A stretch of 64,000 bases of DNA from Eledone cirrhosa (lineage: Eukaryota), in NCBI GenBank assembly GCA_964016885.1, contig OZ024742.1, positions 21,204,001-21,268,000 of the forward strand, in the 5' to 3' direction. Below the pieces are notes generated by a model that was not told the origin of the DNA, did no database searches, and saw nothing but the letters and a program-made list of their open reading frames with translations. Made by a program: the position numbers and the translations under genes. This document shows positions 30,311 to 64,000 of this stretch, one piece after another. Each line of letters opens with the position of its first letter. Position 1 is the first letter of the stretch.

Positions 30311-31938
30311 CAGGAGGACATGATATGAAGGCTAAAAAACACTTGTGGATAGTGCAGTTTTAAATCAACATATGAAAAAGTAGTTTTAGATTGATGTGTG
30401 ATATTGGGAAAAATATTTTATTTAGAAAGGGGGGTGGTGGAAAGGATGAAAAAAGGGGAGGAGATGAGAGTGAAGGTGGAGAGGGAGAGATGGGTGATAG
30501 AGGGAAAGAGATAGTTTTTATAACTGAGAGAAGATATACTGTTTTACATAGAGATGTTGAAAACGGTTGGAAGATAATGTATAAATTAAAAGAATTTGAA
30601 AATTAACGAAGGGAAAAATATGTACGAGAAAAAAAAAATTTTATTTAGAGAGGGGGTGGTGGAAAGGATGAAAGTGAAGGTGGAGAGGGAGAGATGGGTG
30701 ATAGAGAGAAAGAGATAGTTTTTATAACTGAGAAAAAATATATTGTTTTACATAGAGAGGTTGAAAACCGTTGAAAGATAATGTATAAATTAAAAGAATT
30801 TGAAAATTAACGAAGGGAAAAATATGTACGAGGAAAGAGAGGGAGTTGATATGTATTGAGATTAAACATTTTGAAGATAGAGAGAAAAAAAAAAATAATT
30901 GCGGATGAATATTCTAACGTCAAAAAAAAGGTGTATGTTTATAAGTATTATGGCAATTTCAAGATTAACGAAGAGAAAAAATTAAGGTTTGTGTATTGAA
31001 GGATTTGAGAAAAATAATGTGAAGTTAAGGTTTGTATATTGAAGGAATTGATAATATGTGCGAAGAAAGAGTTAATATGTATTAAAAAATTATTAAGGTT
31101 TGTGTATTGAAGGATTTGAGAAAAATAATGTGAAGTTAAGGTTTGTATATTGAAGGAATTGATAATATGTGTGAAGAAAGAGTTAATATGTATTAAGAAT
31201 GAGTTAGATGATGGGGAGAAAAAAATAATAAATTAAGGATGAATATTCTAGCGTCAAAAGAATGTGTACGAAGAAGGAGAGGGAGTTAATGTATTGAGAT
31301 TAAAAAGTTTGATGATGGAGAGAAAAAATAATAATAATTGCGGATGAATATTCTAACGTCAAAAAAAGAAATGTATATGTTATGAAGGATTTTACAAGGT
31401 GAAGATAGAATGAGGGTAATGAGTAAACAAGTATTATAGAGTGTATAATACCCTTTGAAGTAAGGTAGGAAGATGGGTATATTTTAAAGAGGTGTATGTA
31501 TATGTGCCTTTGAGAAAAGATTCTAAATTGATAAAGAATTGAATATTAGCTGTATACTTTGTGAAAAGTCCTATGGAATTTATGCAAGCAGATAGAAAAC
31601 AAATCTGTACGTCTATTTATTATAGAATCTAGATTAGAGATAATGGTAAATTTTTCATTTAGGCAGAGATTACAGATTTTAGATAGAGAGCTGTTCAAGT
31701 ATGAGGACGCAGAAGAAACCTTCTTCCAAAAGATGGTATATTTAATGTTTTTGTCTTTCAAGGACCATATGAGTTCTGAGAGAGCCGTGTTTTCCCCTTT
31801 TTTCATCCTTTCCACCCCCCCTCTCTAAATAAAATATTTTTCCCAATATCACACATCAATCTAAAACTACTTTTCATATGTTGATTTAAAACTGCACTAT
31901 CCACAAGTGTTTTTTAGCCTTCATATCATGTCCTCCTG

Positions 31939-32005
31939 TTTTATCTGATGAAAACACAAATATTATTGCATGATGATGTTTGTTTTTGAAATGCGCATAA
32001 TAAAA
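31939..32005 (+). ncRNA. Type I hammerhead ribozyme, family I
   Basis: ttttat-CTGATGA-aaacacaaata...tgtttgttttt-GAA-ATGCGCAT(palindrome)-A-ataaaa. Confidence 0.85.
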
Positions 32006-32155
32006 TACATGGAACTCCTTTAACCATCTTTTGATCTTATATATTATGTATACTCCAGTCCTACAAACTGTAGAGTGCTTCTTATCCGATATCTGCATTG
32101 CTTTATTGTACTACAATAAAACTCACCTCCTACATATATATACATATATATATAG

Positions 32156-32991: not shown

Positions 32992-33034
<43 letters not shown>

Positions 33035-33037
<3 letters not shown>

Positions 33038-33170
33038 CGAAGGAAATGTGGTAAAGAACCAGGTGGACCATAACGCACCAAAGTACTCAATACTTAGGGT
33101 AGTAGACTGGGTAATAGGAACCAGTAAGACCCCGACGGCTGAGCTCAAGCCGTTGGGGGTCTTACTGGTT

Positions 33171-33175
<5 letters not shown>
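33035..33175 (-). mobile_element. 140-bp mini-insertion of the family D 3' end with a 20-nt inverted arm
   Basis: 33035-33154 is approximately the reverse complement of 13703-13823; 33156-33175 matches 13724-13743. Confidence 0.85.
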
Positions 33176-34255: not shown

Positions 34256-35425
34256 ATGGCTAACCAGCAAAAATCCAAACAGAACTGGTCTGATAATGAA
34301 ATCGACATTCTAATAAACACATGGCATTGCCTTACCCAAACAGATGACATAGATGCTTCATGTCTGAACGACATTGCTAAACGTACAGTTCAACTTTTGA
34401 AAACTCGATCTGAACAACAGATTCAAAATAAATTAAAGCAAATCGAAATTGCTTTTAAATTAATCAATAAACATTTGGATAAACTACGGTGTGTTTTTTC
34501 TTCGAATGCTGTCCAGCAGCAGCAACAACAATAACAGCAGCTACAACGGCAACAACAACAACAGCTACAACAACAACATCAACAACAGCAACAATAACAA
34601 CGACAACAACAACAACAACAGTGTGAACTACGCCTTGATTCATCAACAATGGCCGATCTACTAAATGAAACTATTGACCTCCCAGTAGCCTCTGTCTCAC
34701 AGCAGGAAACGCCACATCCTTTCTCTGGCCCAGCAGTCCAATCATCACCACTGCCAACATCTTCTCTGCCTACTACTACTACTACAACATCTTTGGCTAC
34801 TGCTATTTCAAGGAATTTACCTTCTAATAACAGAACAAGAACTCTCCCTCCCACAGTCCACAAAGGTCGTCAAATCCTACTCAAACCATCATCTACACCT
34901 CTCACAACACACACACCCACATACCCACCCACTCGAAACCCCATCATTTGCCGCTACTCTCTACGCTATAGAATATGTACGGATAGTGGCTGCAAATTCA
35001 CCCATTTACCTAGGACAAAACGATCTATCCCCACAAACAGCCACTACCATAATACATACTCTAATTTAACACCAACACAACCACCAATAACTCAAACAAG
35101 GAGTCCACAAATCTGCCGCATTTCCCTGCGAGACAGATTGTGTTTAGACCGGGATTGTCCCTTTACCCATCTCCCGGGGACCCGTCGGACAAATGAAAAT
35201 AAAATTAAAAATAAAAGCAAAAACAAAAACCATAACCTACATAAAAATAACCACTACCACAGTCACCAACAGTCTTCTAAACAGGAAACTTCTTCCTCTT
35301 TTTTAGCCATAATGAATCTGGCAAAAGAACTGGAAAAAACATTCGAGCTATCACCCAGCACCACCCTCCACTATCACCCCACTGCACAAACTCCCATTGC
35401 TGCCATTAACAAACAAACAAATTAA
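34256..35425 (+). pseudogene. LINE ORF1: Myb/SANT-like N-terminus, polyQ, two CCCH zinc fingers
   Basis: ATG at 34256 is in frame with 34649-35425 and broken only by two CAA>TAA stops in the Gln tract; WSDNEIDILINTW; two C-x8-C-x4-C-x3-H motifs. Confidence 0.75.
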
Positions 35426-38418
35426 CAACACACCAAAACAATTAAAACCAGCCACTCTCGCCTCTACATTTTTGCTTAACGCCCAAGGCATCAGCACTTC
35501 CACCAATACTCAAAAATGGAAGATCAAATTCCTGGAGGACTGGATTGATGTCCATCCAAACCACATCCCTTTCTTCGTCCTCACTGAAACCCATCTCAGT
35601 AACCTCCACTTGGAAGCCGAGGTGAAAGTGAAACATTTCAAAGCCATCCGTGCTGATCGCGCTGGCAGAAGAAAGGGCGGGACTGCCATTTATGTCCATA
35701 ATTCTTTCTCAACAGAGGCTATGAACATATTCACTAATGGATACTGTGAAGCAGTCTCTGTATTCAGTCAAACCAACAACCTAATAGTAGTTGGGCTCTA
35801 TAGGCCACCCCAAACGCCTGTACCATGCTTCAAGGAATGCCTCAACAGCATAAAGTGTTTCATCCAAGAGTGTCACCCTGACAACATCTTAATGATGGGG
35901 GACTTCAACCTCCCCGGAGTTGACTGGTCCACAAACAGCCTGCCACCAGGTTCTTCTGCCTCAACCTCTGACAGGGAAGCAGTGGAATCGCTTCTTGACT
36001 TCATGGATGATTTCTTCCTATCCCAACTGGTGCTCGAAGCAACGAGGTGCCACAAAAACGTCCTAGACTTAATTTTCAGCAACCACACTGACAATATCCA
36101 CAATATTGCAGTGGAGAAAACTCTACTCTCTGATCATGACATGGTTCTCTGTGATCTGAGATTCCACCGTCCAATATACAAACCCAATGTCATCTCTCCT
36201 GTCCATCCGTTTGACGCTATGGATTTCCACAATGCAAACTGGGAAGCGATCAGTCATGATCTTGCACATGTCGACTGGTCCTTCGCGCACACTCATACAC
36301 CCACTAACATCAAAAAGTCCTGGCAGACATTTGTGGACACTGTTACAAACATATGTGCTAAACACACCCCATTAAGAACTATAAACAAATCTAAGAGCAG
36401 AATCCCTAGAAATAGAAAAACGCTCATCAGAAAAATTAAGAGAACGAACAAAAAAATCAACAAGCTGAAATACTGTCAGCAGCAACACATCAACTTGACT
36501 GCCATTTCATCACTAGAGATTAAAAAACATAACCTCCAAAACAACATAATGTCCCTCATCAACAATCAGAGAAGAGCTGAAGAGGCCTGGGCCATTGAGA
36601 AGATCAAACTCAATCCAAAAGTGTTCTTTTCATTTGCAAAAAAAACACAAAATCACTGGCTCTACTGTTGGCCCTCTAATTGATGAAAAAGTCACTCTTC
36701 AAGACAATGCTAAAACCATGGGTGAGATACTGCAGAAACAATACTGCTCTGTTTTCAGCAATCCTGATATGGCCGATCTGGGCTGTATCGGCGATGTTAC
36801 TCCCCATTACACCTTATCGGACATAACGTTTGGCGCCCCTGATGTCTTAGCGGCAATAAAGGAAATCAAGCATAATTCAGCAGTAGGTCCCGATAGGTTC
36901 CCTGCTTGTGTCTTGAAGGCGTGTCAACACCAACTTGCATCTCCTCTTGCCAATCTGTGGTGGAACTCACTAGATGCTGGATATGTGCCAGAAAACCTTC
37001 TATCCCAGTCTGTTGTCCCAGTTTTCAAAAAGGGAAACAAATCCCTTGCCGTGAATTACCGTCCAATCTCACTCACCTCTCATATCATTAAGGTATTTGA
37101 GAGAGTGGTGAGATCGCGAATGACCCACTTCCTTGAGAGTAACAATATGCTGAACTCCAACCAGCATGGATTCCGTAATGGAAGGGATATCCTGACGCAG
37201 CTACTGCATCACTTTGATGACATTTTGAGAGCCTTGGGAGAGGGTTCCAACACTGATGTTATCTACCTTGATTTCAGCAAGGCCTTTGACAGGGTTGATC
37301 ATGACATTCTACTGAGAAAGCTGTCCAATATTGGTGTCACTGGAAAGCTGCTGCAGTGGATCAAGAGCTTCCTGTCAAATAGAACCCAACATGTTGTAGT
37401 TGAAGGAGTCAAATGCAGCCCAACCAAAGTCAGTAGTGGGGTCCCACAAGGCACTGTGTTGGGCCCACTTCTCTTCATCATCTATATTAATGACATCACT
37501 GACATCATCAAACACAGCAACATTAAAATTTTCGCTGATGATTCCAAGCACCAAAAGGTCATCAATGGCGTGGATGACCGGATAAGCCTTCAGTCAGACC
37601 TACTGGCTGTTACCCAATGGGCGGAAAAGAACAACATGTTACTGAACGAAGACAAATTCGAACTGATCCACTTTGGAAAAGAGGATGCTCTGAAACTCCC
37701 GTACTCCCTTCCCTCCGGGGAAACTCTCGTGGCATCTAACAACATCAGAGACTTGGGAGTAACCGTGGACAGCAACATAAACTAGGCCACGCATATAAGA
37801 AGCAAAGTTAACATGGCCCGCAGAATGTGTTCCTGGATCCTCAGAACCTTCCAGTCGAGAGATTCCCACACCATTATCCTTCTCTTCTCTACTTTTGCCC
37901 GACCACACCTTGAATACTGTTGTCCACTGTGATCTCCCCACACGAAACAAAGTATCATGAAACTTGAAGCTCCTCAAAGGGCAATCACGAAAAAGATAGA
38001 TGGCATGTCAGACCTTGACTACTGGGGTCGACTAGAAAACCTGAAACTTTACTCACTCCAACGTCGCCGTGAGCGTTATATTATCTGCATGATGTGGAAA
38101 ATGTTCCATCATCGCTGCCCAAATGATGTTGGCATCGCCTTCAAGATACACCCAAGGCTTGGGCCCCGTGCTATCCGTCCCATTCAAAAATCTAAATCAC
38201 AACTCATAACAACAATACGGCACAATTATTTCACCTCAATCGGCCCTGCTCTCTTCAACATCACACCAGGACGCGTCAAAACAGAAACTGACCACACAAA
38301 ATTCAAGAAGTCTTTGGACAAATTCCTCCAAGTAATCCCGGACAAACCACCCACACCCGGATATGTCTCCGCAAACAGTAATTCTCTTCTCGAATGGGCC
38401 ATGGTGCCCAAATCCTGA
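35397..38418 (+). pseudogene. LINE ORF2: APE endonuclease plus reverse transcriptase
   Basis: LLNAQG, LTETHL, YRPP, MGDFNLP, LDLIFS, SDHDMV; NYRPISLTS, QHGFR, YLDFSKAFD, SGVPQG, FADD; frameshift at the A-run ~36640 and stops at 37783 and ~37930. Confidence 0.93.
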
Positions 38419-38502
38419 ATTGAAAGACTGCGCCAGGTGGTGCTATTAAGTTAGACATGGCCTGGGCCAATACTGGCCAAAACATTTCAAAGTTATTCAA
38501 AG

Positions 38503-38543
<41 letters not shown>

Positions 38544-38589
38544 TAAATACATATATATATATATATATATACATACATATATACATATA

Positions 38590-38682
38590 TACAGCACGTG
38601 GCCCAAGCCTTGGGTGTACACTAAAGGTGATGCCAACATCATTTGGGCTAAGCTGATGGAATATTTTCCATATCATACGGAT
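38590..38682 (-). repeat. Short CR1 fragment
   Basis: Matches 39871-39961. Confidence 0.85.
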
Positions 38683-39402: not shown

Positions 39403-39513
<111 letters not shown>

Positions 39514-39539
39514 CATATAAATATATATATATACATATA

Positions 39540-42500
39540 TAACTTTGATAACTTTGATAGGTTTCGACCAGTATTGGCCCAGGCCATGTCTAACTTAACA
39601 GCACCACCTGGCGAAGTCTTACGAATCAGTGTTTGGCCACCATGGCCCCCTCGAGCAGACAGTTATTGTTTACTGAGGCATATCCGGGTGTAGCAGGCTT
39701 ATCCGGGATTTCTTGAAGGAACTTATCCAAAGACTTCTTGAACTTGATGGGGCCTGTATCTGATTTGATGTGTTTTGGTGTAATGTTAAAGAGTGCAGGG
39801 CCATTGAGGTGAAATAATTGTGCCGTATTTTTGTTATGTGATGTGAGTGGGATTTTTGTCGTGGGCGGATAGCACGTGGCCCAAGCCTTGGGTGTACACT
39901 AAAGGTGATGCCAACATCATTTGGGCTAAGCTGATGGAATATTTTCCATATCATACGGATAAATAGCGCTCACGGCGACGTTGAAGAGAATAAAGTTTGA
40001 GCTTTTCTAATCGACCCCAATAGGGAAGGCCTGTCATGCCAACTATCTTTTTTGTAATTGACCTTTGGGGTGCTTCAACTTTCATGATACATTGTTTCGT
40101 GTGGGTTGACCACAGTGGACAACAGTATTCAAGATAGGGTCAGGTAAAAGTGGAGAATAGAAGGACACCAGTGTGGATATCTCTCGACTGGAAAGTTCTG
40201 AGAATTCAGGAACACATTCTGCGGGACATATCAACTTTGCTGTTTATATGAGTGGCCCAGTTTATATTGTTGTCCACAATTACTCCCAGGTCTCTGATGT
40301 TATTGGAAGCCACCAGAGTTTCACCCGAAGGAAGAGAGTATGGTAGTTTCAGAGCATCCTTTTTTCCAAAGTGGATTAGTTCAAATTTATCCTCATTCAA
40401 CAGCATATTATTCATCTCTGCCCATTGGATAACAGCCAGTAGGTCTGACTGAAGGCAAGTCGGTCACCCACCTCATTGATGACCCTTTGGAGCTTGGTAT
40501 CATCTGCGAAGATTCTGATGTTACTGTGTTTGATGATGTCAGTAATGTCATTAATGTAGATGATTAAAAGAAGTGTGCCCAACACAGTGCCTTGTGGGAC
40601 GCCACTGCGGACTTTGGCAGGGATTGATTCTACTCCTTCGACTACATGCTGGGTTCAGCCTGTCAGGAAACATTTGATCCACTGTAGTAACCTTACAGAG
40701 ACACCAACTTCGGATAGTTTTTTCAGTAGAATCTTATGATCAACCCTGTCGAAGGCCTTGCTGAAATCAAGGTAGATGACATCAGTGTTGGAGCCCTCTC
40801 CCAAGGCTCTCAAAACATCGTCAAAGTGATGCAGGAGCTGCGTTAGGCAGTCCCTTCCATTATGGAACCCATGTTGGTTGGATTTCAGCAGGCCGTTGCT
40901 TTCAAGAAAGTGGGTTATTCGTGATATCACCACCCTCTCAAATACCTTGATAATATGAGAGGTGAGTGAGATCGGATGGTAGTTCACTGCAAGGGACTTA
41001 TTTCCCTTTTTGAAGACTGGGACAACGGACTGGGACAGAAAGTTTTCAGGAATATAGCCAGTGTCCAGTGAGTTCCGCCACATATTAGCAAGAGCAGTTG
41101 CAAGTTGGTGTCGACATACCTTCAGGACACAAGCAGGGAACTTGTCGGGGCCTACTGCTGAATTGTGTTTAATTTCCTTTATTGCCGCTAAGACATCAGG
41201 GGCGCCAAACGTTATGTCTGATATAGTGTGTTGGGGGTTAATATCACTGATACGGCCCAGATCGGCCATATCAGGGTTACTGAAACAGAGCAGTATTGTT
41301 TCAGCAGTATCTCGCCCGTGGTTTTTGCATTGTCCTGGAGTGTGCCATTTTCATCAACTAGGGGGCCAACAGTGGAGACAGTGACCTTGTGTTTTTTAGC
41401 GAATGAGAAGAACACTTTGGGGTTGAATTTTATTTTCTCAATTTATGGCCCACCTCTGTTCAGCTATTCTCTAGTTATTGATGATGGTCATCATGCATTG
41501 TTGGAGGTTATATTTTTTTTACTCAAGCAGGGTGATAGCCATTGAATGTGCGTGTTGCTGTTGGCAGTATTTTAGTGTGTTAATTTTTTTGTTTGTTCTT
41601 TTTATTTTTCTGATAATTGTTTTTCTGTTTTGGGGGATACTGTACTTGGTTTTTTTCACAGGTTTTGGTGGGGTGTGTTTTGTACATATATTTGTGACAG
41701 TGTCTACAAAGATCTACCAAGATGTTTTGATGTTGGTGGAAGTGTGTGCGTGTGTAAAAGACCAGTCGACATGTGATAGTTCGTTCATAATTACAAACGA
41801 GTTGGCATAGTAGAGATCCATGTTATCAAATGGGTGGGCTGGAGAGAGGACCCTGGGATTAGCTTTCGGCTGGTGGAATCTCAGGTTACAAAGAACCATG
41901 TCATGGTATGTGAGAAGGGTTTTTTCCACTGTAATATATGTATAGTGTTAGTGTGGTTACTAAACACTAGATTCAGAATATTCTTCTGATGCCTCGTTGG
42001 TGCAAGGATTAGTTGTGACAAGAAAAACTCATTCATGAAGTCAAGAAGTGACTCGACAGCCTCTTTGTCAGTGGTTGAGGCTGTGGAGCCTGGTTTCAAA
42101 CTACATGTAGACCAATCGACACAGGGTAGATTAAAGTCTCCCATCAAATGTATGTTGCTAGAATGGCACTGTTTGATAAAGCATTTAATACTGTTGAGGC
42201 ATTCTTTGAAATAGATTATCGGTGTTTGTGGTAGCCTATAGAGCCAAACTAATGTCAGGTCATTGGCTTTATTGTGCACAGTGACTGATTCACAGTATCC
42301 ATTAGAGAATGTTATGTTGCCATCTGCCGTAAAGGAATCATGCAGGAAAATGGCAGTTCCACTCTTCCTTCTGCCAACACGATCCGCACGGATGGTTGTG
42401 ACATTTCTCACTCTTACTTCGGCCTCCAAGTGGAAGTTGTCAAGGTGGGTCTCAGTAAGAATGAAGAAGGGGTGTGAAATGGATGGTTACCAACCCAACC

Positions 42501-42625
42501 CTCAATGAATTGGATCTTCCATTTCTGTGCATTGATGGATGGGCTGATACCTTGTGTATTGAGTAAGAATGTGAAGGCTAATGTGGTGGCTGGTTTTGAC
42601 TGTTGCAGGGGGCTTGTTTTGTGAA
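39540..42625 (-). mobile_element. CR1-clade LINE, related subfamily, ORF2 only, decayed
   Basis: APE and RT motifs across several frames; 3' (TCAAAGTTA)2. Confidence 0.92.
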
Positions 42626-48364: not shown

Positions 48365-49105
48365 GAGAGAGAGAATTATGAAAGTAATGAAGATTGGTGG
48401 CATATATATATAAATATATATATATATATAATAGAAAAAACAAGGAAGTTTCGTTTATATATGATAAATATTTTTCATGTGTAAACGAAAATTCCTCGTT
48501 TTTTCTCTTATGTAGACTCAGCCTGTGCATAGAGTGTTTGATTTGGTACCAACACCAGTATTTCACCATACTACGTAAACTATATATATATATACAGATA
48601 AATCTACCACTCAATGGTAGGGTCTAAACCGTATAAAGAACTCAATGTAATCCGTATGTAGGAGATGTCGTGAAGCAAAGTTTAAATATATTAAATTTTT
48701 TATCAACGATATAATTCAATTGGATACAGAGTCAAAATAAAAATATTAAAACAATGAAATTAAACACAAAACTGTTAATTCGTGTGTTTTACTATGAATT
48801 AACACTTTTGAGTTTAATTTCATTGATTTAATATTTTTTAATATATATATATATAGTTTTGCGAGGTTTTTTATATGAAATCGTGTGTCGAAACAAATAT
48901 TGTTATACTTGGGGAGGGTCATATTTGTGTAATATTGCCAGAATTAATAACAGAATACACTCACTGTTTGGTTGGTTTTCGCTTTTCGCTTCTGTGTCTT
49001 TTATATCGGTAATTTAATTTATTCGGTCCTCAATGTTGCCGTTGACTGACCGACGGTCAAAAATAATACAGATACAATATAGACACAAACACATATATAT
49101 AGTTT

Positions 49106-53504: not shown

Positions 53505-53562
53505 ATACTATGATCATTTCAATGACCGGGTTCCATATGAATCCGGTGATTTCATCAGGTAT
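53505..53562 (-). ncRNA. Type I hammerhead ribozyme, family L
   Basis: atac-CTGATGA-aatcaccggattc(atatg)gaacccggtcatt-GAA-ATGATCAT(palindrome)-A-gtat, then AATAAA. Confidence 0.9.
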
Positions 53563-59584: not shown

Positions 59585-59663
59585 ATGTATATATATATAT
59601 ATATATATATAATGTATATATATATATATATGTGTGTTTGTGTGTGTATATATATATATATAT

Positions 59664-59832
59664 TTCACCGTATTTTTTACTTAAGAAATTTTAGTGTGAT
59701 AATAGGGTTTCGACCCCTCAGATAAATGGAAAAAGATGAGTATTGACGTACAATACTCATCTTTTTCCATTTATCTGAGGGTTCTAAACCCGATTATCAG
59801 GCTAAAATTTCTTTAGTAAAAAATACGGTGAA
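59664..59832. repeat. ~80-bp-arm fold-back adjoining (TA)n
   Basis: ttcaccgtatttttt...gagtattg(acgta)caatactc...aaaaaatacggtgaa. Confidence 0.85.
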
Positions 59833-60767
59833 AGCTATTCTATTTTCTAATGTATCGTTCAGACTGGAGTGTAGTGTCTATCCCTCCACGTTACTCTTTC
59901 TTACTTCATACTTCTTTCCTTTCTCCTTTGGATTTTTTCTTTTTATTCCCTGTAAATGTGTGTTTTGTTTTTATAAGATACTGCTCAATTATTTTATTAT
60001 AATGTCAAGGTTTATTTTATGACATTGAGAGATTTTGTAGAGCCACTAATTAAATAAACATTCACAATTGTTCAACTAAACTAACATGATCAGACACACG
60101 AACACACGCATATACGAACGCACGCACGCACCAACGAAAACAGGCAAAGCATTCACCCAAAAAACCATCACCACCGACCTAAAAAAATCAGCCACTCGCC
60201 CTCACAGTGACACTTGAAACTACCCTCACCTCCTCGAACAGTTCACCACACTTTCATCCCCCTTTTCTGTGATATATTAACCATCATAATATCCGTTTTT
60301 ATTGTACGACCCCACATATTAATCACATACATAAGCATACTCGCACACATATTAAATTAGATTTAAATAATCAAAGACGCTATCGAAGACACACACAGAC
60401 ATACACACATACACTTCCATCAACGACACACAAAACACGCACACTAAGGAGAAATATGAACACCTACGAAACGTACACCAATGATATACAAGAAACCTCC
60501 ACCTTGAGCCCTACACCCGCACGCCGTACTACTCGCCTACCCTCCTCCCCCATCTTAAAATGTTCTGCTTCTATTTCCAGCCTTCCAAACTCAGTTTTCC
60601 CCACCTCTCTTTCTCTCCAAACTCTGCTCTTTCCTGACCAAGGAATTAATCCTGATACGTTGAGACATTTATTTACTTCGTTTTTATTTATCTTCATTCC
60701 TAAGCGTGAATAATTCTAATAAGAATTTTTTGTTTTTCCATTTCTCTGTTTGTCTCGTTTGTTCTTG

Positions 60768-61920: not shown

Positions 61921-62824
61921 TCGCATATGACGATGTGAACTTAGATATGCAATATTCGAGTGCAATAAGTCGTAATTGCAGAAACACTCTTGTTCAAAGA
62001 TCAAAGATCTTCTCAGTCAGATATGTCCAGAGACTAAAAAAGACTTAACAGAGAATTGGACAAATCTACAGAACATTCTATTTACTGCTGTTGTTTACCA
62101 CAGACTATACTTAACCATCCAGATTTATGAGAAAAGTTATTTTAGACTTTACAACGCACATTCCAATTTTTTTTTTGTCGAATATCATGGATTACATTGT
62201 CGAATATGTTCCGACAGTTTCCAATAATGAGATTAATTTGGTGTTATGTCTAGCAGGTGAGCCCGCCAAGTAGGAGGCTCCCAGGATGGAAATCTATGAT
62301 ACTAATGGCGCCATGAAAGTTGATAAATTTTCTGACTGTAATATCGAGAAATGGAAATCATCCGCTTAAGCTGTTAAGTGTGTTTTTAGACTTGCATTCA
62401 AAAATATTTTAAAATATGTTAAACATATTTTATGATCTTTCTCAATAATAAACCGTTCGATCAAAGCATATTTTCCCGAATTTCTAAATATAAAATATAT
62501 TTCTGGTTACTTTAGATTTTACGATAACTTTGGTTTGGAATTCAGTTTTTTGTATAGTCAGGTGTTTTATTTTTTAAGATGCATAAAGATAAAATTGTAC
62601 TAACCTGGAAGAAATGGTAGATATAAATACTGGAATATGTATACCAAACAGAACTATCAATTTGCTTACTACTGCAGCAACAACATAAACAGAAGCTCAC
62701 AATTTCATTGACCAGATGTGTCTATCTACATACACGAATTTATATATATAGTTCAAGGAGACAACAAATAAAGGAACAAAGCGTATTAGTTTCACGCTTT
62801 ATATATATACATATATATATATAT

Positions 62825-63140
62825 TTCCATTTACTTTTAGCAAGCCAATATAATGCAGATAATTATAAACGATAGTTGGATAAGTCAGGTAAATCAGATT
62901 CGGATGAAAACAAACAGAAAATCCACGGCTAACAACCCGCAAATCTCTCTCTCTCTATATATATATATGCAACCAGATGCACTGTGGTGTAATGTTTAAT
63001 ATGTTTTCAATATGCTGTAGATTTGCGGGTTGTTAGCCGTGGATTTTCTGTTTGTTGTCATCCGAATGTGATTTACCTGACTTATCCAGCTATCGTTTAT
63101 AATTATCTGCATTATATTGGCTTGCTAAAAGTAAATGGAA
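62825..63140. repeat. Inverted repeat with ~120-bp arms between (TA)n tracts
   Basis: 62825-62946 is approximately the reverse complement of 63019-63140. Confidence 0.85.
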
Positions 63141-63227
<87 letters not shown>

Positions 63228-63420
63228 TAGGCTTGAAGGTTCACCACTGGATAGAGTTGGTCATTCCGTATGGTCAATCTTGATGTAATAATATGGAGAG
63301 TACTCAACGTAAAGCAGCTAAACCGTCTTCGTTTGTGTAGTTGGTGGTGCGAATACGGAGTCAAATATTATCATAAAATAACAGGAGGCTGGACTTGTGT
63401 AAATCCTTGAAAGGTTTATT

Positions 63421-63478
63421 ATACTATGATCATTTGAATGACCGGGTTCCGTATGAATCCGGTGATATCATCAGGTAT
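63421..63478 (-). ncRNA. Family L hammerhead, G12C-mutated copy
   Basis: 63378-63530 approximately equals 53461-53610; GAAA is changed to CAAA. Confidence 0.7.
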
Positions 63479-64000
63479 TCGAAATATAATAAATGAATGT
63501 AACATATAAAATCCATGGGGCTGAAAATCATAGACCCGAGGACGATCTACCATCTAGCATCTTCCACTTTAGCCAGTCGCCCTCAAGTGCAGGCTATACG
63601 GTCTACTTAAGGCTATCTGGTGAGGGGGCGAAAGCTTATAATGTGCTACTAACCTCCCGGTGAAAGAGAAACAAAGACAGAAAGAAAGAAGAAAAGTCAG
63701 CGTTAATGTCATGCTGCAATCAGGCTAGGAATTGCCGCGAAAAATGTTATTCTAAAGAACCTATATCATAACAGAGGTATATATTATAACAGAGGTATAT
63801 ATAGTGGGCGTCTGCATGGTATCATGTGTGAACAGAAAATTGGAACGTTAAATTTTTGTTTAGATTTATAGGATGAAATAAAAACAAATTAAATTAAAGA
63901 TTAAAATTATAAAATTTAAAAAATTAGAAAATTAAAAATTAAACAGTTTAAAAAAATTTAAGGTTTGGGTTGCGAGATTTAGTTAAAGAATTTACAGAGA

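Follow-up and report, generated by a model that had tools for sequence, protein, structure and literature searches.

Insertion junctions of a Hydra-like Penelope-like element family in Eledone cirrhosa point to paired head-to-head copying and to probable hammerhead cutting of a minority of templates

Two questions about Penelope-like elements (PLEs) are posed in the available parts of four papers (PMC8557442, PMC4209133, PMC11167929, PMC3846280): whether their hammerhead ribozymes perform cleavage in vivo, and where their inverted pLTR comes from. Craig et al. (2021; PMC8557442), who describe the Hydra clade, call the function of the hammerhead in PLEs unclear, and the passages available from that paper contain no junction mapping. 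Cervera and de la Pena (2014; PMC4209133), in the available text on the Cercyon PLEs of Schistosoma, state that there is no in vivo evidence for PLE ribozymes. For PAc, a Poseidon PLE of Anolis, Frangieh et al. (2024; PMC11167929) report in the passages available that both strands are nicked and extended in vitro from two internal priming sites, that no RNA-seq reads start at the ribozyme site, and that the dominant template is uncut RNA. The head-to-head repeats of PLEs have been explained by an antisense self-priming model (Arkhipova et al., 2013; PMC3846280, in part), and the accessible part of a recent preprint, in which junctions do not figure, links retrozymes to PLE pLTRs (10.64898/2026.07.22.740005). 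The U3-A8 variant of the hammerhead, the inverted 5' copy, the tail and internal priming from two sites are already known, according to the available passages of three of these papers (PMC4209133, PMC8557442, PMC11167929). A search of the main texts of mostly open-access literature found for PLEs neither a class of junctions at the cut site nor a transcription start inside the ribozyme. The element described here, family D, provides base-resolution genomic evidence on both questions from one assembly, with exact positions at +1, -40, +20 and +100.

The window is the whole stretch of DNA analysed, 64,000 nucleotides long, corresponding to positions 21204001-21268000 of contig OZ024742.1. Positions within family D are numbered from C17 at the predicted cut, which is 0 (window position 13723), so that +1 is 13724. 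Genome-wide counts are exact-pattern matches across the 3.0-Gb assembly. All counts of junctions and arms are lower bounds, because mutated copies escape exact patterns. Samples such as the first 100 are the earliest matches in genome order, and therefore come from the first contigs. The tallies of hairpin-centred joins, of short junctions in the second family and of the first extra base at -40 were made by eye. The features of the window are listed in Table 1.

Table 1. Positions in the window of the family D, family H and second-family features discussed in the text.
Feature	Position	Strand	Details
Long family D insertion	12149..13823	.	Inverted arm of ~800 bp (12149 to ~12945) and body (~12946-13823)
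Type I hammerhead, U3-A8 core	13635..13728	+	Descriptor search and folding
Putative main capped transcription start, A of TTAGTC (-40)	13683	+	Inside 3' side of stem II
Putative priming site 1, TAT at +18..+20	13741..13743	+	Arm outer end
Putative priming site 2, TAT at +98..+100	13821..13823	+	Body outer end
Body of the flagged mini-insertion	33034..33154	-	Family D from about +100 back to A14 (-20)
Single extra junction base, G	33155	+	C on the arm's cDNA strand
Inverted arm of the flagged mini-insertion	33156..33175	+	+1 to +20; outer TAT fused to (TA)n
Family H pLTR segment, hammerhead-like fold	25702..25791	-	Core CCGAAGA 25787-25781, GAAA 25760-25757, predicted cut 25749/25748
Family H inverted arm	26750..26801	+	79% match; inner end 5 nt upstream of predicted cut
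Second Hydra-like PLE family (RWK)	1680-7717 and 27717-28165		RT 4095-5846, EN 3161-4234

On the basis of its sequence, family D appears to be a young, (TA)n-targeting, Hydra-like PLE. This is a likeness only, and the family is not assigned here as a member of Hydra. A tandem locus (L210) has a unit of 3,547 bp and an ORF of about 720 codons that begins at +191 and is interrupted in this copy by one stop. The ORF contains reverse transcriptase motifs including YRDD, together with DKT, a C-terminal GIY-YIG region (YIG), the CxCX5C linker CNCPDRSIC, and CxxC (CNLC) and CxH (CKH) motifs around EN; no CCHH pattern was found in it. Family D has the architecture of Penelope-like EN+ elements, with tandem units as pLTRs, an inverted 5' copy, an 80-nt tail between the outer ends and a hammerhead in the pLTR. 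As far as the available passages describe it, the Hydra clade (PMC8557442) is the same in its single ORF of RT and C-terminal GIY-YIG, in DKT, in the CxCX5C linker, in CxxC and CxH around EN without CCHH, and in having a hammerhead, (TA)n targets, an inverted 5' copy and a tail. The two differ in the N-terminal motif, which is RWR in family D and RWK in the Hydra clade, in the length of the unit, which in the Hydra clade is generally under 3 kb, and in the tail, which there is 30-40 nt. A Pfam search with three PLE proteins returned no families, and the identification as an EN+ PLE is based on these motifs. A database search found 244 unnamed relatives of about 700 aa.

The hammerhead of family D has a stem I formed by acccc and ggggt, the core UUGAGAA at 13640-13646 (containing U3 and A8) and GAAA at 13701-13704. 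The GUC ends at 13723, which places the predicted cut at 13723/13724. Stem III is 6-7 bp long, with a palindromic loop. Folding gives pair probabilities of 0.75-0.99 for stem I and 0.5-0.8 for stem III; in the read-through RNA the value for stem III is about 0.8. The core is intact in 10/10 direct copies and 8/8 long arms among those readable by script. The stability of the fold is no better than that of shuffled sequences (z -0.8 to -1.2), and the 150 matches listed, of 296 from an Rfam scan, include no hammerhead family, being only microsatellite-driven matches to miRNA and snoRNA. Hammerhead cores of the U3-A8 type can be active. The sole source on this activity found in the literature is the Cercyon study (PMC4209133), whose available passages describe U3-A8 core covariation in the pLTR, as in family D. 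The minimal Cercyon hammerheads differ from that of family D, in which stem III is a stable helix of 6-7 bp, making a monomer fold plausible.

The arm fused to (TA)n has 7,386 exact matches genome-wide and none in the reversed control, and the arm and body architecture is thus far beyond chance. Each insertion consists of two head-to-head copies with their outer ends fixed at +20 and about +100 from the predicted cut. The full unit goes on beyond +100 (GTTATCT), and two more TATs lie between the outer ends, at +42 and +62. The bodies of the first 100 arms have an exact GTT-(AT)n end in 62 cases and a variant of it in 5, and continue into element-like sequence in 3; for 30 of the 100 there is no body end of the GTT-(AT)n type within 420 bases. 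Junctions with both anchors number 221 with a gap of 0-30 bases, 468 with 31-60, 2,659 with 61-90 and 1,473 with 91-120.

The inner ends of the arms are less uniform. In the first 100 of the 7,386, 71 lie at -30 to -45 (the mode being -40, with 15), 11 at -1 to -29, 7 at +1 (two of these being a tandem pair without a body) and 11 beyond -45. An apparent peak at -30 was rejected as an artefact of the minor reference allele. Arm and body carry the same allele at -3 in 59/60 insertions. The arms often reach farther 5' than their own bodies (-40 compared to -5, +19 and +54), which implies that neither was copied from the other, and the idea that all arms are fold-back copies of the body was rejected for this reason.

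Two minor observations concern the junctions. Some junction inserts are copied from nearby sequence, at times as several repeats (L158, L192, L191 and others), and we take these to resemble the products of polymerase-theta end joining. A minor group of junctions ends at -42 to -44 (L243, L247, L250), often on the palindrome AAATTT. This group may come either from an additional start site or from read-through cDNAs that were joined by microhomology.

The majority of inner ends run to -40, upstream of the cut, a feature overlooked in the preliminary description of this DNA. At 278 loci both copies end at -40 with extra bases between them. The sequence at this position, TTAGTC, is presumably an initiator-like word. 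Among 100 listed ends, 70 have C as the first extra base, 29 have G (largely in fold-back inserts) and one has T. A copied cap is known to leave an untemplated G on the sense strand, according to the accessible text of PMC9341517, and Penelope is described as having an internal promoter in that of PMC2377424. The main RNA would thus appear to be capped and to start at -40, inside the ribozyme. A start at -44 (TCATTT), suggested by 30 arms, was dropped because the cap-type C maps to -40. An RNA starting at -40 contains neither the UUGAGAA core nor the 5' strand of stem I; folding predicts that it forms a rival hairpin over GAAA, and it should therefore be unable to cut itself in cis.

The flagged mini-insertion, at 33034-33175, lies within a (TA)n microsatellite. 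The outer end of its body is fused to (TA)n, with 33034-33036 common to element and microsatellite, and the body has the older CCTA/GCCGTC haplotype. It had been noted from the sequence that the inverted 20-mer starts at the first base after the predicted GUC cut and is preceded by one extra G. This is confirmed by sequence comparison, the arm being identical to 13724-13743. The 20-mer was also said to end within 2 nt of the end of the 12151 arm; the outer end is indeed shared (+20, at 12149), the long arm differing by one substitution, at 12150, and the long copy and the flagged insertion have the same two outer ends. The further proposal, that a cDNA ran off the end of a self-cleaved RNA, is supported for family D, where junctions pile up at +1 (see below), but the flagged copy is not a clean example of it. 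Its junction is mixed and not a double stop: the body passes the cut and reaches A14, the base facing C17 at the stem III foot.

The flagged copy is therefore ambiguous, although its arm was probably derived from cut RNA. The arm would have run off the cut RNA, an untemplated C and then A would have been added, and the product and a body trimmed to -20 would have been connected at AA/TT. This explains in one step, with no slip, both the flagged junction and three further loci. One of these (L350) has exactly the same five-G junction with unrelated flanks, and the other two (L351, L352) are near variants; they were identified among 10 matches. The alternative is that the two cDNAs were made on uncut RNA, each extending beyond the cut, and that they were then joined, or snapped back, inside the quasi-palindromic stem III, whose foot adjoins the cut. 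With the body ending at A14, opposite C17, hairpin-centred joining would likewise place the start of the arm at +1. The insert folds into a single hairpin with loop 3 at its centre (z about -10), it carries the perfect-stem C allele, stem III is the axis of symmetry in it and in its twin L350, and joins centred on a hairpin are frequent, at 16/100 listed junctions by eye (~75 loci). Such a join would however require a +1 slip in the C run, and in its annealing version a CpG change as well, and the identical slip would have to have happened twice, as the same junction occurs at L350. For this copy, and for this copy only, we regard the stem III join as a serious competitor, though a doubtful one.

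The case for cutting rests on the family as a whole. By exact pattern, there are 122 loci genome-wide at which both copies reach +1 with no more than 6 bases between them, and this class makes up about 1.7-2.7% of insertions. Of the 221 short junctions, the first 100 include 59 whose ends both fall at 0 to +2, against 1.8% under a flat null; 24 are exact CCCC/GGGG, and 20 have both ends at +1 with extra bases. The count of family D junctions at this base across the genome, which had been put forward as a check on the cut, thus shows enrichment. As the exact class could be CG microhomology, the ends were mapped in the 42 junctions with extra bases. Here 30 arms are at +1 and 2 at C17, and 26 bodies are at +1 and 1 at C17. 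The first extra base at +1 is A in 32, T in 15 and C in 9 (56 ends); the proportion of extra C, 9/56, compares with 70/100 at -40 by eye (p 6e-11).

The two ends are also correlated within an insertion. All five +1 arms that have a body have it at +1 or +2, compared to only 2 of the 68 arms at -30 to -45 (p 1.4e-6), which fits a template that physically ends at +1. The cut class is found on at least 4 body haplotypes, with many different inserts and on several chromosomes, and so represents independent events. The 6-bp palindrome CAGCTG, only 2-7 nt from the cut, centres 0/100 short junctions. An earlier view of +1 as a mere hairpin artefact, taken when none of the first 30 arms was found there, was overturned by the 122-locus class and the short junctions. 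Some counterpoints should be set beside these data: 24 of the 59 peak junctions (CCCC/GGGG) have a second possible reading, joining at a 2-nt CG microhomology; C/G fits a weak pyrimidine-purine start, C being present at some of the +1 ends; the fold does not exceed shuffled sequences in stability; and PAc shows no RNA-seq reads beginning at its ribozyme site (PMC11167929). The +1 junctions are likely to reflect cutting by the U3-A8 hammerhead in vivo, at the level of the family and in about 2-3% of insertions.

Other origins of the +1 end were considered. It might be a minor second transcription start, for which the pyrimidine-purine step C/G would be suitable, or an end made by another nuclease, and either would give correlated ends equally well. 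The cap signature, however, is strong at -40 (70% C) and missing at +1 (16% C, mostly A), and the position is exactly the base that the hammerhead rule predicts; we consider this origin improbable. Somewhat more improbable still is that, on uncut RNA, the reverse transcriptase stalls on meeting the 3' foot of stem III. The foot is indeed one base from the cut, and stem III is predicted to be largely paired in the read-through RNA (probability about 0.8). A stall should nevertheless copy the unpaired C17, which only 3 of 59 resolved ends do, and stalls would strike the two cDNAs independently, so that a rate of 2-3% gives about 3 double stops, against at least 122 observed; in RNA from -40, moreover, stem III is replaced by the rival hairpin. 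The least credible explanation is that the short class is post-insertional, through deletion of the centres of longer palindromes, amplification of one mini-master or an assembly artefact: long palindromes are unstable and difficult to assemble, and 24 junctions are identical, but the class has many different untemplated inserts on several haplotypes and chromosomes, and the stronger neighbouring palindrome CAGCTG centres none of it.

On the basis of these observations, we hypothesise that the mini-insertions are head-to-head pairs of copies primed from both strands of (TA)n, and that the 2-3% with a double +1 end come from RNA cut by the hammerhead; we give this reading a probability of roughly 0.78. 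Once a (TA)n target has been cut, its two strands would serve as primers, and reverse transcription would begin at two internal sites in the sense RNA, the nicked target ending in ATA and pairing with UAU at each site. Each cDNA would extend to the 5' end of the RNA, and the cDNA ends would be trimmed and then connected by end joining, with microhomologies and templated insertions.

Three kinds of template would then be distinguished. The main capped RNA from -40, without the 5' half of the ribozyme and hence uncuttable, would give dead ends of ~200 bp and account for about 70-80% of events. Uncut read-through RNA (about 11% of events) would give long arms and be the sole route to ORF-bearing copies. 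The long family D copy appears to be of this type: its arm and body both cross the cut, from which we infer an uncut read-through template. The whole ribozyme would be present only in read-through RNA, and when this is cut, the 3' piece would retain both priming sites and give dead-end inserts of ~120 nt, in about 2-3% of events. If priming is equally efficient, the share of read-through templates that are cut would be, crudely, one in five; the 100-arm sample would allow up to one in three. Because the downstream priming sites are severed by the cut from the RNA that bears the ORF, cleavage would restrain full-length copying unless the RNA is religated.

A more detailed version of the model holds that a PLE dimer primes both strands at the two UAU sites, that the main RNA starts inside the ribozyme, and that cutting of about one-fifth of the read-through RNA acts as a brake. 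For this combination we put the chances at even. If it is true, priming at two UAU sites of a sense RNA explains both the head-to-head inverted pLTR and the tail. Each cut in vivo would cancel one chance of a full-length copy, and the ribozyme would be a built-in brake and not a processing step. A census of junctions could then be used to read ribozyme activity and start sites in any high-copy PLE family.

The proposed mechanism resembles that of PAc, within what the available text describes (PMC11167929), in its two internal sites of RT start, in the nicking and extension of both strands, in its AT-rich target and in a mainly uncut template. It differs in that PAc has no homology at the priming site, whereas both sites of family D are TAT and match the target, and in that family D has a genomic class ending at the cut and both cDNAs joined in thousands of insertions. 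A trace of the cut site at genomic 5' junctions is shared with the HDV-like ribozyme of R2 (Eickbush et al., 2013; PMC3774820, passages available), but there the cut creates a working template, while in family D it would mark a minority dead end at an inverted junction between cDNAs. The PLEs for which antisense self-priming was proposed (PMC3846280, available part) also have head-to-head repeats, a palindrome at the junction and an Inr-like sequence in the pLTR. For family D the data favour a sense, capped RNA as the template of two independent cDNAs, and not antisense self-priming, because the cap-type C is found on both strands and the arms are longer than the bodies.

Two further families in the window bear on these questions. 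The arm of family H had been cited as additional support, on the grounds that it starts about 5 nt from its cut site. The distance is correct, but those 5 nt come from upstream of the cut. The arm thus crosses the predicted cut, and it was rejected as evidence for arms derived from cut RNA; judged by its sequence, it is the copy of an uncut template. The inner end of this arm lies in the middle of the palindromic CAGCTG loop. The second Hydra-like PLE family has a minimal C3-G8 hammerhead with a TATATA loop. Its outer ends are at +31 and about +175, and a long copy can start from either. Of its 24 short junctions (counted by eye), 9 end at 0 to +2, 8 go past the cut and 7 fall short of it, in a small test in which A17 is the same as the favoured untemplated base; they are consistent with the cut-site class, but weakly so.

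It is worth adding some minor features of the window. Hammerhead motifs with a CUGAUGA core and a palindromic loop 3, belonging to other PLE-like families, are found at 53505-53562 (-), 63376-63527 and 31937-32007 (+). LINE copies with an APE endonuclease and RT are present at 35316-38591, 39454-42604 and 14125-15525, partly beside or inside PLE and (TA)n tracts. Finally, self-comparison of the window identifies short palindromic inserts at 59663-59833, 62800-63165 and 48739-48838, which may be mini-insertions of further PLE families.
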